Shown: positions 3,712 to 42,868 of the stretch, in pieces | Position numbering within the stretch: the stretch's first letter is position 1 | Layout: each line of letters starts with the position of its first letter | Virus record (IMG/VR): IMGVR_UViG_3300010331_000021 | Span: 1 to 42,868 of that record | DNA length: 42,868 nt | Origin: a virus | Strand: one strand, 5' to 3' | The notes under the pieces: model-generated | The model's input: the letters and a program-made list of their open reading frames with translations, nothing else | Database searches by the model: none | Told to the model about the DNA's origin: nothing | Translations under genes and position numbers: made by a program

Positions 3712-4962
3712 TTGGGAAGAAATAATGAGAGGGGGTTACTTATCATGGAAGGTCATTTTTATAAACCTAATTGCAAGTGTCCCAAAGATGCTAAGAAATG
3801 TACTTGCGGAGCTACGTGGTCTTACATCGTCGACATTGGGGTTGATCCCAAAACTGGAAGGCGCAAACAGAAAAAGAAAGGCGGGTTTAAGACAAAAAAA
3901 GATGTTACCTTGGCCGCCGCTATCGTGATACAAGAACTTGATCAGGGGACCTTTATTCAGGAATCGAGTATTACGTTTAAGGACTTTACCGCGGAGTGGC
4001 TAGCTCTTTATCATGGAACTGGAAGGGTTAAGATAAGTACAATAAGAATCAGGAAACACGAAATTGGCAGGCTTAAGCCATTTTTCTCCTTGAATAAAAT
4101 TAAGACCATAACAAGGAAAATGTATCAAGGGGCATTGAGTGATTTAGCGAGACAAGGACTTTCATATGGTACCCTCATAGGTATCAATTGCACGGGGCGA
4201 ATGATCTTTAAGAAAGCCGTAGAATTGGGCTATATAAAGACTGACCCAACTCAATACGCTGTTATTCCAAGGACACAGAAAACAGTCGAGGAACTTGAGG
4301 CTGAGGAAGAAATCCCTAAATACCTTGAGAAGGAAGAATTGTCACTCTTTCTAAAAACGGCTAGGGGTAAGGGTTTGGAAATGGATGTCGTTACTTTTGT
4401 TACCCTGGCTTATACTGGAATGAGGGCTGGCGAGTTATGCGCCTTAAAGTGGAAAGATATTAACTTTGAAAATCACACAATAAGTATCACTAAGACTTTG
4501 TATAGCCCAACAAATAATACAAGAAAATATGAGTTGCTTCCACCAAAAACGAAGACCTCTAGGAGGGTGATCGAAGTAGATGCTGTTGTTTTGACGGAAC
4601 TAGAAAGCCATCGAGTGAAACAAAACATTGTTAAGATGAGCCATAGGGATACGTATCACGATAAAGATTTTATCTTTGCTAAAATGAAAAAGAGCCACGG
4701 CTATCCTGAACTCGTAACTATTGTTGAGACACGCATGTCTAGGTTGCTCAAGCTAGCAAAGTTAAATCAGGACCTAACACCTCACTCCCTAAGGCACACT
4801 CATACATCGTTATTAGCCGAGGCTAAAGTCGGACTCGAAGAAATTATGGAACGTCTTGGACACGCCAACGACAAAATAACAAGAAGGATATATCTGCATG
4901 TAACTAAAGCTATGAAAAAAGAGGCTTCCCAAAAGTTCGGTGAACTAATGAGAACCCTCTAA
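3712..4962 (+). CDS. int: Tyrosine integrase with an N-terminal Cys-containing arm-type DNA-binding domain. The likely start is the ATG at 3745.
   Basis: Catalytic signature seen: YTGMRAGEL (R), HSLRHTH (H-x-x-R), LGH and RIYLH (Y). GAGGGGG lies 10 nt before the ATG at 3745. Confidence 0.9.
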   Translation: MGRNNERGLLIMEGHFYKPNCKCPKDAKKCTCGATWSYIVDIGVDPKTGRRKQKKKGGFKTKKDVTLAAAIVIQELDQGTFIQESSITFKDFTAEWLALYHGTGRVKISTIRIRKHEIGRLKPFFSLNKIKTITRKMYQGALSDLARQGLSYGTLIGINCTGRMIFKKAVELGYIKTDPTQYAVIPRTQKTVEELEAEEEIPKYLEKEELSLFLKTARGKGLEMDVVTFVTLAYTGMRAGELCALKWKDINFENHTISITKTLYSPTNNTRKYELLPPKTKTSRRVIEVDAVVLTELESHRVKQNIVKMSHRDTYHDKDFIFAKMKKSHGYPELVTIVETRMSRLLKLAKLNQDLTPHSLRHTHTSLLAEAKVGLEEIMERLGHANDKITRRIYLHVTKAMKKEASQKFGELMRTL

Positions 4963-9108: not shown

Positions 9109-10122
9109 GTGATTAATTATATGGCTGCACAAATACTTAGTTCCACCGCCGAGATTATGCTCGAGCAGATTACAGACGCTATCGATTGCCCCAATGCGGA
9201 CAAGCAGTATATCCAGCAAGCAATTACCGAAATACTAGCTCAGTACGATATTAAACCCGCCTTGGTCATGTCTGGCAATCCGGATCTAGCGCAGAAGATA
9301 AAGCTGTTTCTATCTGGAAAACGTCTGGAGGGTCTCGCGAAGTCAACTCTTAAAGGTTACGGTCATGAACTCCGCCTCTTCTCTCAATACGTCCCAAGGG
9401 CAACGGACGAGATAACTACAGGAGATATCCGGATTTACCTGAGCGAGTTTGAACACCTCAAGACATCTTCGCTCTCAAAAAGATTGTCGGTACTCAAATC
9501 AATGTTTGGATGGTTAACAGCTGAGAAGATAATCCCTAATGACGTGACAAAGCAAATAAAGCCGCCGAAGAAGGAGCAACGGATTCAAGAATACTTGAAT
9601 ATTGGAGAACTTGAGATGGTCAGAGAGGCATGCATTACTCCGAGAGAACGTGCGCTAATGGAAGTGCTGTATGCAACTGGCGGAAGGCTCTCTGAGATTC
9701 AGAAGATGAGTCGCGGAGATATCGACTATCAGTCCATGTCGGTATCGGTAATCGGGAAAGGAGATAAACAGCGCATTGTGTATTTTTCACAGAAAGCAAT
9801 ATACCACTTGAAGAAATACTTAATGCGTAGACTAGATGATAATCCAGCCTTATTTGTATCCATACGTAAGCCCCATGGCCGGCTCTCTGGGCGCGGGATT
9901 GAACATGTAATACAAGTTATATCAGATCGGTCTGAAGTAGAGAAAAATGTGCATCCGCATATATTTCGTCACACCTTCGCAACATTGCTTTTACAAAATG
10001 GTGCAAGTTTAATAGCCGTGCAGGAGTTACTTGGCCACTCCGATCCTAAAACGACAATGACCTACGTGAGCATTACATCGGAGCAGAAAAAACAATCATA
10101 CAATCAATACTTTGTTCAATAA
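9109..10122 (+). CDS. XerC/XerD-like tyrosine recombinase, the second recombinase in the genome. The likely start is the ATG at 9121.
   Basis: Catalytic residues seen in ATGGRLSE (R), HIFRHTFAT (H-x-x-R), LLGHSD (H) and MTYV (Y). An N-terminal SAM-like domain is present. Confidence 0.85.
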   Translation: MINYMAAQILSSTAEIMLEQITDAIDCPNADKQYIQQAITEILAQYDIKPALVMSGNPDLAQKIKLFLSGKRLEGLAKSTLKGYGHELRLFSQYVPRATDEITTGDIRIYLSEFEHLKTSSLSKRLSVLKSMFGWLTAEKIIPNDVTKQIKPPKKEQRIQEYLNIGELEMVREACITPRERALMEVLYATGGRLSEIQKMSRGDIDYQSMSVSVIGKGDKQRIVYFSQKAIYHLKKYLMRRLDDNPALFVSIRKPHGRLSGRGIEHVIQVISDRSEVEKNVHPHIFRHTFATLLLQNGASLIAVQELLGHSDPKTTMTYVSITSEQKKQSYNQYFVQ

Positions 10123-25421: not shown

Positions 25422-27188
25422 CTAAACGCCTAATAGCCTTCTGTCCCCAACTTTTATGGCCTGAAGTACCTTTATTTCTTTAATGTCGATCGTAAATTGA
25501 GCCACACAGTCAGGCGCATCATCGTGTTCCGAGAAATCCTGTCCGGAGAACTCCAAGACTTGATCACAGAACGCCTTATCTTCCTCGTTGAAGATCACTT
25601 GGCCAGTATTAACGCCCTGGATGATCGTGCCGATCTTCTCGTCTTTGTTTTGGCGTTGCATGGCGTTGAGATATTCAACCTTTCGGTACTTCAGCTCCGG
25701 TTCTAGTAGTGCCAGCTCTTTGATCTTGCTAACATCAGCTCCGGAGTAAAGATTCTTCTCAACACTGACGTGGGTTATGTCCGGATACAACAACAACAAC
25801 CCAACAACCTTCTTGCAGAAGTCATCAAAGCATAGTTTTGCGAGGATTCCCTTTCGGACGTATTTAAAGCCGTTAACGGCCGTGGATCCAACCAGTAAAG
25901 CAGAGTAATCCGACTTGATGGTTACGCTTGAAGCCGGGTCGCATACCAGCATGGTCTTTGTGAACTCGTGATCCTCAATTTCCTCCGCCGTTTGGGTCCT
26001 CATGGACTTGAACCACTTCTCACCGATCTTACTGGCGTCGTTGAGCATCTCCTGGGCGAAGGCCGTGGGGTTATTGTAATAATCAATGGCTAGATCAAGG
26101 CAGTCATATTTATCCGGCCAGATCGTCGTGTACTGCATGTCCACTTGATGCTGATAATAAAACTCTTTGGCATCAGCAACAGGATCTTGCCGTTTGTCGT
26201 CAAAATATATTTCTTTGAACTGTTTCCATAGCGGTCCTTCGTTGAAGAACTCGCTGACATCAAAGTCAACGGCCCTTTTAAGAATGTGCTTATAATCTCG
26301 ATCCTTGAGTAATTGAGACATGAAGCAATTCTTGTGTAAGATCGTTCCAATCACGATAAACTTCGTGGCAGGCTTTATCTTTACGCCTTTACGGTATACC
26401 GCTTTATCCCCGGCGTAAGCACTATCCTCCGCCCAGGTGTCATATTTCTTTTTACGACTGGCCTCAGTGATGATGTCCGCCCTGGACTGATAGTCATCCG
26501 CAATAATGCAAGACGGCCTACTATCGCCATATTTCTTACCACGCATTGAGCTAGTAGAAGAGATGGCCTGAATCTTTGTTTTGTTTGTAAGTTCAAGCTC
26601 CAGCTTGTTGACCGTGAAGTCGTTAGGCCGGATCAGCTTCCCGAATGCCGCGATAATGTATTGGTTTTCCTCGAAAGCCTGCCGAGTTTGACTTATGAAA
26701 GCGACCGAATCGCCCTCTGTCCGCCCAGCAACTAGCGTGTATTTGCTTTTCTTGTAAGCATGGATCCACACCGACAAAGCAAAGTCGAGGACAGTAGTTT
26801 TTGCCACTCCACGAGGAAGGACTGCTTCCAGTTTGTCATGAAGGTCCTGGATAAACATCCGATCTAGTTCTTCCCAGATCTCTATATGGACCGGCGCGAG
26901 TTCTCGCGCTGTGTTGTCCGGCTTCGGCAGGAAGGTGTCTTGGAGGAAGTACCTGCAGAAAAATGGAATGCTCAGGGCACCGATGCTGTGCGCTAATCCC
27001 TCAAAGCCGAAGAGGTTACTAATATTTTTTAATATCAACGCCTCTGTTGAGGTCTCTGCTTCTTTGGGGCTCGCGCCACTCGCAATAAACTGGCCATAGA
27101 TCGCTCCATACAAAAGCTGTCTGTTTTGTTGCTCTTCCTCTTCCGTGGTTTCTAACCTTTGCTGAGGCGCTTGTGTTTTAGCCATCAA
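25422..27188 (-). CDS. terL: Terminase large subunit. The likely start is the ATG at 27185.
   Basis: Walker A-like LPRGVAKTT and Walker B-like CIIADDY, plus a C-terminal nuclease-like region. Confidence 0.9.
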   Translation of the reverse strand: MMAKTQAPQQRLETTEEEEQQNRQLLYGAIYGQFIASGASPKEAETSTEALILKNISNLFGFEGLAHSIGALSIPFFCRYFLQDTFLPKPDNTARELAPVHIEIWEELDRMFIQDLHDKLEAVLPRGVAKTTVLDFALSVWIHAYKKSKYTLVAGRTEGDSVAFISQTRQAFEENQYIIAAFGKLIRPNDFTVNKLELELTNKTKIQAISSTSSMRGKKYGDSRPSCIIADDYQSRADIITEASRKKKYDTWAEDSAYAGDKAVYRKGVKIKPATKFIVIGTILHKNCFMSQLLKDRDYKHILKRAVDFDVSEFFNEGPLWKQFKEIYFDDKRQDPVADAKEFYYQHQVDMQYTTIWPDKYDCLDLAIDYYNNPTAFAQEMLNDASKIGEKWFKSMRTQTAEEIEDHEFTKTMLVCDPASSVTIKSDYSALLVGSTAVNGFKYVRKGILAKLCFDDFCKKVVGLLLLYPDITHVSVEKNLYSGADVSKIKELALLEPELKYRKVEYLNAMQRQNKDEKIGTIIQGVNTGQVIFNEEDKAFCDQVLEFSGQDFSEHDDAPDCVAQFTIDIKEIKVLQAIKVGDRRLLGV

Positions 27189-27358
27189 TCACACCGAGGC
27201 GGACGGTAGAGGTTAGTCTTTGCGGGTGCCATAGTCGTCGGCCTACCAATCGCCGACCTGACGGGCCTTTCATCGGGATCCAGCTCGTCACAGTCATAAT
27301 ACTCATCGATCTCTTCTAACTCGTCTCGTATTTCCTCTTTTGTCATATCTGGCACCAT
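27185..27358 (-). CDS. 57-aa protein with a very acidic N-half and a basic/Pro-rich tail
   Basis: Own translation: MVPDMTKEEIRDELEEIDEYYDCDELDPDERPVRSAIGRPTTMAPAKTNLYRPPRCD. AAGGAGTGA lies 6 nt upstream. Its stop overlaps the terL ATG by 1 nt. Confidence 0.5.
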   Translation of the reverse strand: MVPDMTKEEIRDELEEIDEYYDCDELDPDERPVRSAIGRPTTMAPAKTNLYRPPRCD

Positions 27359-27394
27359 AAGCTTTCACTCCTTCATTTCAGGCATAACTTACTC

Positions 27395-27760
27395 CTAGTT
27401 ACCATAGTCAATCTTCTTTAATTGACCATTTATATATCCCCAGTTGCTTGGTTTGAAGTCGGATAAAAGGAATTCAACTAGCTCATCATCTTTGTATTTC
27501 TCTTCTAAAACTTCCATGGTATCTAGCCAATTAGTATCATTACCCAACACTTCGGCTCTCTCCATGATTAAAACGAAACCGAGTTTTCCGCAAAAACTAA
27601 CTCTTGCTAAATCAGGATGATTGCCGGACCAAAGCTTCTCTTGAAGGTTAGCTAGTAAACCATTTAAGAATAAATCATATTGTTTAAATGTCGGTATTTT
27701 TAGGACAAACTTTTTAAATACAAATACTATCCTAGTCGCCCCACGTTCAATCTGGAACAC
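27395..27760 (-). CDS. Minimal protein-kinase-like protein, 121 aa (function is inference)
   Basis: GTG start with AAGGAGTGA 9 nt upstream. Motif order is ERGATRIVF, VLKIP, LIMERAE, SDFKPSNWG (D-x-K-x-x-N), then KIDYG 17 residues later. Confidence 0.55.
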   Translation of the reverse strand: MFQIERGATRIVFVFKKFVLKIPTFKQYDLFLNGLLANLQEKLWSGNHPDLARVSFCGKLGFVLIMERAEVLGNDTNWLDTMEVLEEKYKDDELVEFLLSDFKPSNWGYINGQLKKIDYGN

Positions 27761-27776
27761 TGATAGGCTTCACTCC

Positions 27777-28319
27777 TTATTTCACTCTCACGCTCGACGC
27801 GGCATACTCGTCTTGAACCCATCGAGGAAGAACCTCGTCAAGCTGTTTTCTAAAGATCAGATATAAATTAAGTGATATCCGGTTAGAGCCGAAGAAGTAG
27901 ATCGGGTTAACATAATACTGAGTGATCTTCTCACCACCCAGCAAGACGGTTACCCTGGCAATCATACTCACCTTGATCATGCTCCGCACAAAGTCTCTGG
28001 CCTGATATGCTTTCAATCCAACAAGCACACCGATCTGCTCATCGGTATAAGCCTTCACCCCACCACTACCCCGATAACCTAGCATATTGGTATTGCTCCA
28101 CATATGCTTTGCCAGTGTCGCCATCTGCCCGCGTTCCTTCATGGTCATGCCCTCTGGAAAGTCTACATCCACAAATGACTTGGCGAAGTTCTTACGTGCC
28201 CAAAACAAATAACCCTTCTCGTCATGGAACGCGGCTGCTATATGCTGAACCTTCTCACTCGTCATCTCCCCAGTATCCGGATTAATAATCTGAGTAACTT
28301 TTATAAGACTGTTGCTCAT
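27777..28319 (-). CDS. Winged-helix-like DNA-binding protein (RepL / replisome-organizer-N-like pattern, or a second TerS-like protein)
   Basis: 180 aa. AYTDEQIGVLVGLKAYQARDFVRSMIKVSMIARV and QYYVNPIYFFGS resemble wHTH replication/packaging DNA-binding domains. This is motif-level inference only. Confidence 0.5.
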   Translation of the reverse strand: MSNSLIKVTQIINPDTGEMTSEKVQHIAAAFHDEKGYLFWARKNFAKSFVDVDFPEGMTMKERGQMATLAKHMWSNTNMLGYRGSGGVKAYTDEQIGVLVGLKAYQARDFVRSMIKVSMIARVTVLLGGEKITQYYVNPIYFFGSNRISLNLYLIFRKQLDEVLPRWVQDEYAASSVRVK

Positions 28320-28877
28320 GGAAACCGCGTTCCCTTCCAGTTGGTTTTTGTGCCCATTTAGACCCTCAAATCAGTCGAAAAACCAACGGCCAAATATGGC
28401 CTAAACCCTTGGTAGTAACAGAGCGTAGCGAATTGACCATGTAAAGATACATAAGTACTAACGTTACAAGTCTGCACGGTTTCCTGCCATGGGGCCTTTA
28501 AGAGGGGCAAAAGTTTTGAGGAGAATTAAAAGTTTTTCTGGAAATTGTAAAAATAATTGTTGAGGCGACCGCCACGCTCTCAGGAGAAATCAGAAAAAGA
28601 AGACCACCCCCTAATGCTTTTTAGCGATTGGGTCCCATAATAGGTACTATGACAAGTAAAGTACTAATTGGTGCAACCTCTATAAGCCTAGTGTCAGTAA
28701 GGTTACAGCCAATCAGCGTATATTATGCGTAAGTAGTAAGCTGTAATTATGCGCCAATGTCCACGACTAGTGTACGTTATTGTTTGTGATCGACAGACAA
28801 CTCACACTCGGGCAGTAGTCAGCCGCTGAAATCCTGATAGGTTAAGAATTCAGTAACCAGACAGGAGCCAAGCTGTA
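28320..28877. other. 558-nt non-coding region, the largest in the window, between terS and the wHTH gene
   Basis: TAA, TAG and TGA occur repeatedly in all three minus-strand frames (checked by hand). No ORF of 60 aa or more appears on either strand in the track. Confidence 0.7.
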
Positions 28878-29396
28878 TTAGATATCAATGACCTCTGGTT
28901 TGTTTAATTGCCTACACTGCTTAAAGGTTTTTTGTATCTCCTCTAGCATGGGTACCTTGACCTCAATCGTTTTCTCCACCTCGTGCTTGTCTCTCCACTC
29001 TAACTTCTTCCTGTTCTTCAACCAGAAGATCATTGATGTCGGATCAGCGAGCACCTCTTTAGTGACTCGCTTTGTCTCGACCATCTCATAACCAACGATC
29101 GTTACATGATCCCATTTGTCATAAATGGGCAATCTCTCACGGGTTATCTCGTCATATCTAAAACCCTGTGTTCGCTTGAACAGAGCGTTCTCAACCATTA
29201 TGTCGGCTTCTTCTTTTCCCCTTTTTAAGGCAGACCGGAAAGACGGATATCTTTTCTTATAATCCTTTAACGTTGTAGTACCTATTCCCAAATTATGGGC
29301 TATGTCTGCTTCTATCAGGCCATCTCTACACCAGGCCTCAACGAGCACTAATTTACTTTGTACTTGTGGCCATTTGCTTACTGCCATATGGGCCAC
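28878..29396 (-). CDS. terS: Terminase small subunit. The likely start is the ATG at 29387.
   Basis: An HTH (DIAHNLGIGTTTLKDYKKRYPSF) is followed by ALKRGKEEADIMVENALFKR...MIFWLKNRKKLEWRDK, a pattern typical of Firmicutes phage TerS. Confidence 0.75.
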   Translation of the reverse strand: MAHMAVSKWPQVQSKLVLVEAWCRDGLIEADIAHNLGIGTTTLKDYKKRYPSFRSALKRGKEEADIMVENALFKRTQGFRYDEITRERLPIYDKWDHVTIVGYEMVETKRVTKEVLADPTSMIFWLKNRKKLEWRDKHEVEKTIEVKVPMLEEIQKTFKQCRQLNKPEVIDI

Positions 29397-29399
29397 CTC

Positions 29400-29522
29400 C
29401 TAACCTAGGAACTTTACTTGAGCGCATTCCGGACACTTTGCCCTCTCCTGATATGAGAAGTAGTTCTTTTTACAGATCGGGCACCGGAACAGGATTAGCT
29501 GGATTCTCATTTTCTTAGACAT
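29400..29522 (-). CDS. 40-aa zinc-ribbon protein
   Basis: Own translation: MSKKMRIQLILFRCPICKKNYFSYQERAKCPECAQVKFLG. AAGGAGG lies 6 nt upstream. Confidence 0.5.
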   Translation of the reverse strand: MSKKMRIQLILFRCPICKKNYFSYQERAKCPECAQVKFLG

Positions 29523-29645: not shown

Positions 29646-30167
29646 CTAAAATATTGCAGGTTGAACAGGCTTTTTGAAGATAATTCCGCTATCAGTCAAA
29701 TCCTCGACCATATGATATATTTTATCTTCTGCCCTTCTGACCAGTAGCTGGACCGTTCCCTTTTGGATTTTCATGATATTCGCTGCCACTCCGAACGAAT
29801 AACCACTGCCCCTGACAAATGAGTATGCTTCGCGTTCTTTGGCGCTCAGGACCTTTAAGACTATCCCTAAATCTTTGATTGCTTTTTGCGTCTGCTCGCT
29901 GATCTCTGGAGGATGGCTTTGTATTGCGACTGCCCTAACAAAAGCAACACTCTGCGGATCCATGGGAACTTCCCGTCGAAGAGAGCTCAATCTCGTTATT
30001 CCTCGATAGCTGTCCGGGTTTTTACCCATCTCCATAAATCTGATTGAGTATCCAAGACTGTCCGCACAACTAGCAAGCAAAGATCTGTCCTCTCTGCCGG
30101 TGGCCACTGTTCTTGCTTTATTAACACTCCGTAAAGCAACTCGGTATTCCCTGATTAACCTTTTCAC
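29646..30167 (-). CDS. Sigma-70 region-4-like late transcription regulator (Xpf/positive-control-factor-like)
   Basis: 173 aa. LSAKEREAYSFVRGSGYSFGVAANIMKIQKGTVQLLVRRAEDKI is a region-4-type HTH. It is the last gene before the packaging genes. Confidence 0.65.
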   Translation of the reverse strand: MKRLIREYRVALRSVNKARTVATGREDRSLLASCADSLGYSIRFMEMGKNPDSYRGITRLSSLRREVPMDPQSVAFVRAVAIQSHPPEISEQTQKAIKDLGIVLKVLSAKEREAYSFVRGSGYSFGVAANIMKIQKGTVQLLVRRAEDKIYHMVEDLTDSGIIFKKPVQPAIF

Positions 30168-42471: not shown

Positions 42472-42868
42472 TTAAATTTCAGGTGTTTCAGTTTCGATGA
42501 CAACCACGCCTCGGAAACGGATCCGGATATATTGGATCAGTACCAGGTACGCCTCACCATCCTGACTATCCCCGTGTGTTTTTAGCACGGCGGCTTCAAA
42601 CTTATCGATCGAGCCTTGGAAACAACCGCGTGTAATCTCAATAGTTTCCTCTTTGGTCATGTACGCGGTAAGCGTGCCACTCTCTGAACCCACTGAGGAA
42701 AACCATGCTACGTGTTTTTTCGAGGACACCCGAGCATCGCCGGACACCCAAGCATCGCCGGACACCCGAGCATCGCCGGACACCCGAGCATCGCCGTACA
42801 CCCGAGCATCGCCGGACACCCGAGCATCGCCGGACACCCGAGCATCGCCGGACACCCGAGCATCGCCG
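42472..42868 (-). CDS. Hexapeptide-repeat protein, 3' part. It is open at the right edge and continues the frame begun at 375..1.
   Basis: The frame stays open to position 42868. It has repeats (S/Y)GDA(R/W)V and then a unique C-domain: SSKKHVAWFSSVGSESGTLTAYMTKEETIEITRGCFQGSIDKFEAAVLKTHGD... Confidence 0.8.
   Translation of the reverse strand, partial: GDARVSGDARVSGDARVSGDARVYGDARVSGDARVSGDAWVSGDARVSSKKHVAWFSSVGSESGTLTAYMTKEETIEITRGCFQGSIDKFEAAVLKTHGDSQDGEAYLVLIQYIRIRFRGVVVIETETPEI
42727..42868. repeat. The same 18-nt tandem repeat as at 1..234, with 7 full units plus 16 nt
   Basis: Counted directly. 42799-42868 is identical to 1-70. Confidence 0.95.

Follow-up and report, generated by a model that had tools for sequence, protein, structure and literature searches.

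A winged-helix gene with its own palindrome and leader hairpin, followed by a cargo slot, in the terS-terL interval of a temperate phage genome

IMG/VR virus record IMGVR_UViG_3300010331_000021 is a viral DNA of 42,868 nucleotides (nt), which was analysed over its whole length and is called the window here, and our subject is the interval that separates its genes for the small (terS) and large (terL) terminase. On the minus strand the gene order is a sigma-like gene, a Zn-ribbon open reading frame (ORF), terS, a 558-nt gap, ORF180, ORF121, ORF57, terL and a portal gene, and the five ORFs from terS to terL are present where an earlier note, made from the sequence of this DNA alone, had listed them. 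That note had treated everything between the two terminase genes as one 1.7-kb island. We find that the interval is best explained as three layers of different age, namely a spacer common to the terminase clade, a portable module made up of ORF180 and the elements just upstream of it, and a cargo slot in front of terL. ORF180 most likely stands at the head of the terL operon as a regulator that binds DNA at a specific site; taken as a whole, we regard this explanation as about evenly balanced between right and wrong.

To describe the interval across relatives of the window, TerL relatives were drawn from viral contigs and annotated phages, and the gap was read wherever both terminase genes were visible (n = 11; loci are given below by our L numbers). 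In the window, terS (28878-29396) matches phrog_309 with E 3.4e-51, in agreement with the assignment proposed earlier, and terL (25422-27185) is of the phrog_38 type (E 1.2e-80). The premise that terS and terL are normally adjacent does not hold for this clade, because the distance between them was at least ~350 nt in all 11 loci. What fills the gap varies: it may consist of non-coding DNA only, or contain ORF180 homologs, a winged-helix protein of 179 amino acids (aa) that scores as RepL in Pfam (L004; 23.4 bits against a cut-off of 20.3), or a serine recombinase. Serine recombinase/invertase genes were located in the gap of L016 (4449-5162), of L002, which is C. difficile phage HGP05 (4070-4642), and of KX905163 (55745-56302). 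Since these recombinases occupy the gap in more distant TerL relatives, it appears to be a general cargo site in the clade.

The boundaries between the layers became visible by comparison with the nearest relative, L023, whose TerL is 86% identical. This locus is collinear with window positions 30181-27769 at 83.6% nucleotide identity, a stretch that spans the sigma-like gene, the Zn-ribbon ORF, terS (93% identical in L023; 65% in L004/L006), the spacer and ORF180, and collinearity resumes from 27212 onward at 80%. The segment 27768-27213 is the only one that is not collinear, and L023 has three unrelated ORFs in its place. Consequently, the island described earlier stands only in part: 27213-27768 is an exchanged cassette, while the spacer and ORF180 are conserved and collinear with relatives. 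When substitutions in the spacer, ORF180 and terS were compared with six relatives, a strong third-position bias was seen in ORF180 (4/6/35 by codon phase) and terS (8/5/30), as opposed to no periodicity in the spacer at 28320-28877 (38/39/40 against L034). Together with insertions and deletions that are not multiples of three, this bears out the view that the 558-nt stretch is non-coding.

ORF180 (27777-28319) encodes a basic, distantly RepL-like winged-helix protein of 180 aa with an isoelectric point (pI) of 9.47. The AlphaFold2 (AF2) model, with a predicted local distance difference test score (pLDDT) of 82.7, consists of a winged helix of generic type, with beta-hairpins ahead of it and helices after it, and Foldseek matched it to MarR/MepR, TubR and DnaD-N; model and matches thus agree with the winged-helix-like label that the ORF had been given. 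Its family match is phrog_31110, of unknown function (E 3.3e-25). Clustering at 90% identity divides the family into 133 groups, and at 50% identity it has 410 representatives. With few exceptions the members are single-domain proteins of ~170-200 aa, and none carries a functional annotation. That ORF180 is a real gene follows from the 133 homolog clusters and the third-position substitution pattern. The closest genome matches were found in Desulfosporosinus metagenome-assembled genomes (82% and 74% identity), and a tblastn search against annotated phages returned no homolog. A few members depart from the usual architecture, among them a 514-aa protein in which only the C-terminal part is ORF180-like and two proteins of ~350 aa with two ORF180-like stretches (P0317, P0209, P0216); in the scanned set, one member gave an HNH match. 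In L005 (1051-1218), L119 (3823-4008) and probably L114, which are different phages, the ORF180 homolog is directly followed by a conserved ORF for a small basic protein of 55-61 aa (HxRW..SWIxLxGDGR..KEMVKGS.KK..QRDTRLRLKREL); this ORF is absent from the window and may be a partner gene.

A census of the neighbourhoods of ~80 dereplicated ORF180 loci placed the family beside terminase genes. An ORF of at least 380 aa started 0-1.9 kb downstream of the ORF180 homolog in 51 loci, and at least 46 of these 51 large ORFs are TerL, matching phrog_2 (26) or phrog_38 (20), if the two sets of matches do not overlap; the Pfam types represented are Terminase_6N, Terminase_3, TerL_ATPase and GpA. A TerS gene was found upstream of the ORF180 homolog (phrog_309 in 15 loci, phrog_606 in 3 and phrog_24579 in 2) or between the homolog and TerL in ~25 loci (phrog_51 in 11, phrog_2606 in 9 and phrog_1595 in 5). 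Accordingly, the order is ORF180 homolog, terS, terL in ~25 loci and terS, ORF180 homolog, terL in at least 15, the window included. Because a separate TerS is present in most loci, ORF180 is not a TerS substitute, and the suggestion that it might be a second TerS was further weakened by the absence of any TerS match in PHROG or Pfam, where phrog_31110 was the only family found. Neither is ORF180 a local insertion, since the module with its cis-elements is widespread beside unrelated terminases.

The cis-elements of the module were found by aligning the 200 nt upstream of 39 non-redundant ORF180 homologs. The conserved part comprises the last ~160 nt of the spacer, with an inverted repeat (IR1) and a leader of ~100 nt that contains a hairpin (H2), followed by ORF180 itself. 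IR1, the proposed ORF180 binding site, is an imperfect palindrome (CCGTGCAGA...N...GTATCTTTACATGG) at 28437-28479 that occurs once in the window genome. Across homologs its consensus is CCATGTAAAGATAC-N-GTATCTTTACATGG, with an AT-rich centre. In 959 kb of loci it lay ~160 nt before the ORF180 start codon in 41 loci, was shifted upstream in 3, and occurred almost nowhere else; TerL relatives without ORF180 lacked it. A motif-first scan of all viral contigs gave 13 matches, 10 of them directly beside an ORF180 homolog, and an earlier, stricter pattern had matched one contig only. IR1 is conserved in sequence, and its mismatches include 46 G.U and 31 A.C pairs, as expected of a DNA site rather than of RNA. 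In divergent ORF180 homologs (<45% identity) the consensus was missing, and 7 of 26 such loci had at the same position a different palindrome with 11-nt arms and an AT-rich spacer, compared with 0.31 expected from shuffles; this strict test was used in place of an earlier, lax one that had not reached significance (23 found against 15 expected). This is the pattern to be expected if a DNA site and the protein that binds it evolve together. Two occurrences of similar repeats stand apart from the module. An IR1-like long hairpin lies between 834-aa and 328-aa putative structural genes in L125 (3184-3227) and L126 (1671-1714), which represent a different phage type with no ORF180 homolog, and is probably an unrelated terminator or hairpin. 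In L129 a canonical-looking IR1 (728-768) is found just 3′ of a terS-like gene with no ORF180 homolog in the ~600 nt beyond, and could mark a decayed or replaced module. A literature search for the palindrome sequence yielded nothing relevant.

By contrast with IR1, which is kept in sequence, H2 is kept in structure. This leader hairpin (GTTGGTTTTT / AAAAACCAAC) is located on the minus strand at 28340-28387 and ends shortly before the ORF180 ribosome-binding site (RBS), and in the window its 10-nt arms are 100% complementary. Over the 39 loci, 85% of the cells of the stem alignment were paired, compared with 36-48% when the partners were slid; the stem sequence varied freely between loci with complementarity retained, and both sides changed in 8 of the 10 pairs (for example GC 15, CG 12, UA 4, AU 3). 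The excess of G.U (27) over A.C (7) favours an RNA of the sense strand. The 150 nt upstream of IR1 contained terminator-like hairpins in 9 of 35 loci, compared with 2 of 35 controls. A genome terminus upstream of ORF180 homologs was also considered and dropped, since contig ends showed only a mild bump at 750-1000 nt and were heterogeneous, some falling inside terS.

The third layer is the cassette at 27213-27768 on the minus strand, which contains ORF121 and the N-terminal four fifths of ORF57. Its GC content is 36-38%, compared with 45-50% in the flanks, and it is from this low GC and the loss of collinearity that we conclude that only ORF121 and most of ORF57 were recently exchanged. The slot is empty in L036, L038, L113 and L039, where the ORF180 stop runs straight into the RBS and start codon of terL, and in L035 it holds yet another gene. 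The ORFs of the interval are separated by 16 and 36 nt, and the AAGGAGTG Shine-Dalgarno (SD) sequences lie in these spacers, not inside the ends of the preceding genes as had been stated. The cassette showed neither a promoter nor a terminator of its own. ORF57 (27185-27358, minus strand) is an acidic orphan (pI 4.32), with no homolog but itself among 5.8 billion proteins and no family match; its codon score of 0.18 in frame is gene-like, real genes scoring 0.25±0.09 and off-frames −0.34±0.16. The strong negative charge that had been pointed out is evident from 16 acidic against 8 basic residues, and nothing supports the DNA-mimic role that had been attached to it. As had been described, its stop codon (TGA, 27187-27185) shares a base, the A at 27185, with the terL start. 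The terL ATG at 27185-27183 is the start used in relatives, whose proteins begin MAKTQ, and no good SD precedes it. The last ~25 nt of ORF57 (..LYRPPRCD) are common to an unrelated 46-aa ORF that precedes terL in L023/L034. Given this retention of the terL-proximal ~25 nt with an unrelated ORF and the want of a good terL SD, the most economical role of ORF57 is probably translational coupling to terL.

ORF121 (27395-27760, minus strand) is a minimal protein-kinase-fold protein, as had been suspected, that belongs to phrog_4301 (unknown function) and ends 3 residues after a DFG-like DYG. The AF2 model has a pLDDT of 94.5, with strands over residues 3-23 and a helix at 28-44, and the top Foldseek matches in the PDB were TTK/Mps1 (E 5.7e-5) and NleH2 (E 6e-4), with probability 1.00 to TTK, NleH2 and TTBK2; a chain of the pre-40S ribosome particle was also among the matches. 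In 53 ORF121 homologs K21, E41, D118 and Y119 are invariant, and G120 and the motif D101-x-K103-x-x-N106 are at least 90% conserved. A PDB profile match aligns the catalytic loop and DYG with HSDLKPAN...DFG of TTK. The activation segment and the C-lobe helices (alphaF-alphaI) are missing, as the ~120-aa homologs end 1-3 residues after DYG, and a Pfam scan at E≤1 gave no match to a kinase model or to any other. Phage records with a homolog of ~120 aa number 93, T4-like JS10, jumbo 121Q and N4-like phi G17 among them, and the annotation is hypothetical throughout. The unrelated phage L119 has a copy with 80% identity, which follows an ORF180 homolog of 33% identity and precedes a 618-aa ORF located where TerL would be expected; this indicates that the kinase gene has moved between phages into the same slot. 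No acidic partner ORF recurs beside ORF121 homologs, no PADLOC defence or anti-defence family was matched, and a literature search for a described ~120-aa phage kinase found nothing relevant. Phage kinases, exemplified by the T7 kinase, can act as broad anti-defence factors (PMC13645617). ORF121 probably has an accessory role in host takeover or anti-defence; such a role, earlier proposed for the island, stays plausible, by analogy with the T7 kinase, for the kinase cassette only.

Combining these observations, we propose that ORF180 would bind IR1 as a dimer and control transcription of its own gene and of the terminase and late genes that follow, through autoregulation, as a late-operon switch, or both, and that H2 would act on the mRNA through stability, processing or attenuation. 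The interval between ORF180 and terL would serve as a slot in which cassettes are exchanged at RBS-bearing junctions, ORF121 being cargo that may act as an accessory host-takeover or anti-defence enzyme, while translation of the acidic ORF57 would deliver ribosomes to terL. A regulatory role of ORF180 is suggested by the constant spacing between the palindrome and the ORF180 start codon, by the structured 5′ leader within the module, by the position of the module at the early/late boundary beside the terminase genes and by the terminator-like hairpins just upstream of IR1 in 9 of 35 loci. Several points weigh against this proposal. Fold searches with ORF180 returned generic winged helix-turn-helix (wHTH) matches only and no specific structural relatives, and neither its family nor that of ORF121 carries an annotated function. 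ORF180 may be redundant for late activation, because an LtrA-like candidate is encoded upstream of terS. A large ORF within 4 kb was missing in ~20 of the 72 loci with enough downstream sequence. An upstream terminator was seen in no more than 26% of loci, the window not among them, and a consensus sigma-A promoter at IR1 was seen in one of the four loci scanned, which was not the window, so that we keep such a promoter as a weak inference. An origin or a packaging site could equally well take the form of a palindrome around an AT-rich spacer. As for the cargo, codon usage is the one line of evidence that ORF57 is a gene, and a 121-aa kinase core that lacks the whole C-lobe may be incapable of catalysis.

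Two other functions were considered for ORF180. It could be a RepL-like replication initiator for which IR1 and the AT-rich spacer serve as origin, giving a second, late or plasmid-type replicon beside the packaging genes, for example for concatemer synthesis or episomal maintenance. We consider this improbable. RepL proteins (PF05732) resemble ORF180 in size (~160-180 aa) and in having a wHTH followed by a C-terminal NPxxF...RI...LYxLF-like motif, and HHalign of the ORF180 family (A3) profile with the RepL-positive protein in the same slot of L004 gave a probability of 90.6% (E 1.3e-6) over 68 columns. Annotations among the BFVD and PDB matches include replication initiator, replisome organiser and DnaD-N, the palindrome is unique and has an AT-rich centre, and in TerL relatives such as phiSemix9P1 and HGP05 the gap contains recombinase genes. 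However, membership in PF05732 had to be rejected, since none of 53 family members matched it at E≤0.1 and only one of 48 divergent members did (E 0.0012); the family thus falls below the Pfam model, and what it has in common with RepL is a generic wHTH and a short C-terminal motif. Moreover, ORF180 heads a late/packaging cluster rather than a plasmid replicon, far from the complete replication module of the phage, and the fixed distance from IR1 to the start codon together with an RNA hairpin in the 5′ untranslated region looks like gene control. Alternatively, ORF180 could be a packaging-specificity factor, either a second TerS or a pac-binding accessory protein, that binds IR1 as the packaging start and recruits terminase, a reading that we find decidedly improbable. 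It would account for a basic, predicted DNA-binding protein with a unique cognate site near terS and terL, for the attachment of ORF180 to terminase genes of whatever family and for the several loci where its homolog lies immediately upstream of TerL, the classical position of TerS. It is difficult to reconcile with the absence of a TerS-family match and the canonical TerS that co-occurs in most loci, with the finding of the same IR1 beside unrelated terminase families, which would need different interaction surfaces, and with the position of IR1, which keeps its distance to the ORF180 start codon but not to terS or terL. A site-specific regulator remains our preferred function for ORF180, at the strength given above.

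For the cargo and for the interval as a whole, the alternatives fared differently. ORF121 might not be a functional protein kinase; instead it might bind ATP as a pseudokinase or decoy, or use a kinase N-lobe and catalytic loop to phosphorylate small molecules or nucleotides, which we see as an appreciable minority possibility. The protein is without the activation segment, the APE motif and helices alphaF-alphaI, which in canonical kinases provide substrate binding and anchoring of the spine, and it has no Pfam Pkinase match. In Escherichia phage JS10 (L134) its 122-aa homolog (1477-1845) ends 2 nt before rnlB, the gene for RNA ligase 2, an adjacency that may hint at a nucleic-acid-related role. 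On the other hand, K21, E41, D101, K103, N106 and D118 are invariant or nearly so among the 53 sequences from very different phages, the D-x-K-x-x-N loop has the Ser/Thr-kinase form, and the closest structures include the reduced effector kinase NleH2, which is an active kinase. The original view of the whole 1.7 kb as one foreign island between otherwise adjacent terS and terL, serving anti-defence, host takeover or packaging redirection, is largely refuted as a unit by the synteny data, and we now regard it as very improbable. It retains some ground in that the ORF121/ORF57 segment is truly horizontally exchanged and low in GC, and phage kinases can serve as broad anti-defence factors (PMC13645617). 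Yet the spacer and ORF180 are conserved and collinear in relatives, ORF180 homologs adjoin terminase genes of unrelated types across the family, and terS and terL are never adjacent in the clade. Nor do the three ORFs travel together: ORF121 and ORF57 occur in no relative of the window, ORF57 is an orphan, and PADLOC gave no matches.

The locus does not fit any textbook packaging module, as had been remarked, and it is not a categorically new system either, since it combines a putative late-operon regulator, a moron-like cassette and a reduced kinase fold. The late regulators of Gram-positive phages known as Ltr (RinA, ArpU, LtrA/Sigma70_r4, LtrB/DUF1492 and LtrC) have their binding sites beside terS (PMC3753634). 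The role proposed for ORF180 would be analogous to theirs. ORF180 resembles them in being a small, basic protein of phages that is encoded at the boundary to the packaging genes, with a putative cognate DNA site by the terminase genes and a site specificity that apparently differs per variant. Unlike them, it is a winged helix with no Pfam or PHROG match to RinA, ArpU, Sigma70_r4, DUF1492 or LtrC; its putative site is a palindrome upstream of its own gene, whereas Ltr proteins have direct repeats that lie between their gene and terS; the module includes a leader RNA hairpin that covaries; and in the window ORF180 is located downstream of terS, with an LtrA-like gene present besides. Morons and cargo slots of temperate phages are a concept from the literature on lambdoid phages. 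The window cassette is moron-like in being discrete, deviant in GC and present, absent or replaced between collinear relatives, with short conserved junctions. It differs in that its slot lies inside the packaging module, directly before terL, and the cargo is probably translationally tied to an essential gene because its last ORF overlaps the terL start codon. With reduced kinases such as NleH1/2, RIO and Bud32, ORF121 has in common the N-lobe, the alphaC Glu, the VAIK-type Lys, the D-x-K-x-x-N motif and the DFG-type Asp, and like T7 gp0.7 it is phage-encoded accessory cargo. At 121 aa, with no activation segment or C-lobe helices, it is to our knowledge shorter than any of these kinases. The T7 kinase (T7K) has a DPV motif in place of DFG (PMC13645617). 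ORF121, a member of phrog_4301 with DYG instead of DPV, is no T7K homolog.

The remaining features concern the genome and the flanks of the module. Positions 1-70 of the window are identical to 42799-42868, and this 70-nt terminal overlap indicates a circular assembly, hence a complete genome of ~42.8 kb. Two tyrosine integrase genes on the plus strand (3712-4962, phrog_1 E 2.6e-71; 9109-10122, E 1.5e-54) and a full replication module, with DNA polymerase, primase-helicase, helicase and exonuclease, identify the phage as temperate; the second integrase may belong to an inserted element or be an Xer-like resolvase. No near-identical DNA was found in annotated phages. Upstream of terS on the minus strand are the sigma-70 region-4-like gene (29646-30167), a candidate LtrA-type late activator that matches phrog_1190, 'RNA polymerase sigma factor' (E 4.8e-34), and weakly Sigma70_r4_2, and the 40-aa Zn-ribbon ORF (CxxC...CxxC; 29400-29522), which abuts terS. 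A terminator-like hairpin lies between the two (29567-29548), and all three features are kept in L023. TerL is 59% identical to that of Clostridium phage vB_CpeS-1181, and after terL comes a portal gene of the SPP1 type (SPP1_portal, E 3.5e-88). The terL homologs of this Clostridium phage (L001, 1537-2708, carrying a 259-aa ORF) and of L026 (3193-4408) are interrupted by ~1.2-kb insertions that look like introns or homing-endonuclease-type interruptions.

Within the distal non-coding spacer (28520-28877, minus strand), where no codon periodicity was seen, a conserved block at 28542-28610 (GGGGGT...GGCGGT...CAACAATTATTTTTACAATTT), ~270-335 nt downstream of terS, is common to L023, L005, L006, L009 and L004. 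Because L004 has the block and the same terS and terL types without ORF180 or IR1, the block tracks the terminase genes and not ORF180, and it may be a pac site or a promoter tied to the terS/terL type. A long-range helix in the minimum free energy fold of the window (GGAAACCGUG with CGCGGUUUCC at the RBS) was dropped, being conserved no further than the nearest relative. Scanning with Rfam 15 gave no match over the whole window at the gathering threshold, nor any within 27100-29500 at E≤5, and no tRNA or tmRNA was found in the spacer. In L027-L029 a strong sigma-A-like promoter followed by two terminator hairpins was observed ~850-400 nt upstream of the ORF180 homolog, with a conserved Cys-rich ORF of ~61 aa ahead of IR1; this arrangement may constitute a small RNA or attenuator unit.

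A bolder reading, to be judged jointly and in our opinion doubtful rather than probable, is that IR1, H2 and ORF180 form an unrecognised, widespread packaging/late-operon control module of Bacillota phages, an equivalent of the Ltr activators that uses a winged helix to bind a palindrome and is supplemented by an RNA element, that this module creates a cargo hot spot before terL, and that ORF121 represents the smallest catalytically active family of protein-kinase-like enzymes (~120 aa, ending at DFG), which occurs in Desulfosporosinus-type phages as well as in T4-like, N4-like and jumbo coliphages and serves host takeover or anti-defence. If the ORF180 module and the kinase were inactive or redundant, the locus would be an ordinary mosaic junction with hypothetical genes. 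How phages control their late and packaging genes is understood in only a few groups, and a 400-cluster family with its own palindrome and leader hairpin beside unrelated terminases is a candidate for a new class of regulators in Bacillota phages. The ORF180 module also marks a predictable cargo slot before terL. In addition, phage kinases are now emerging as broad anti-defence tools, and a 121-aa kinase core asks how little of the kinase fold suffices for activity, a question that is directly testable since ORF121 homologs are present in the cultured E. coli phages JS10, 121Q, phi G17 and IME341.

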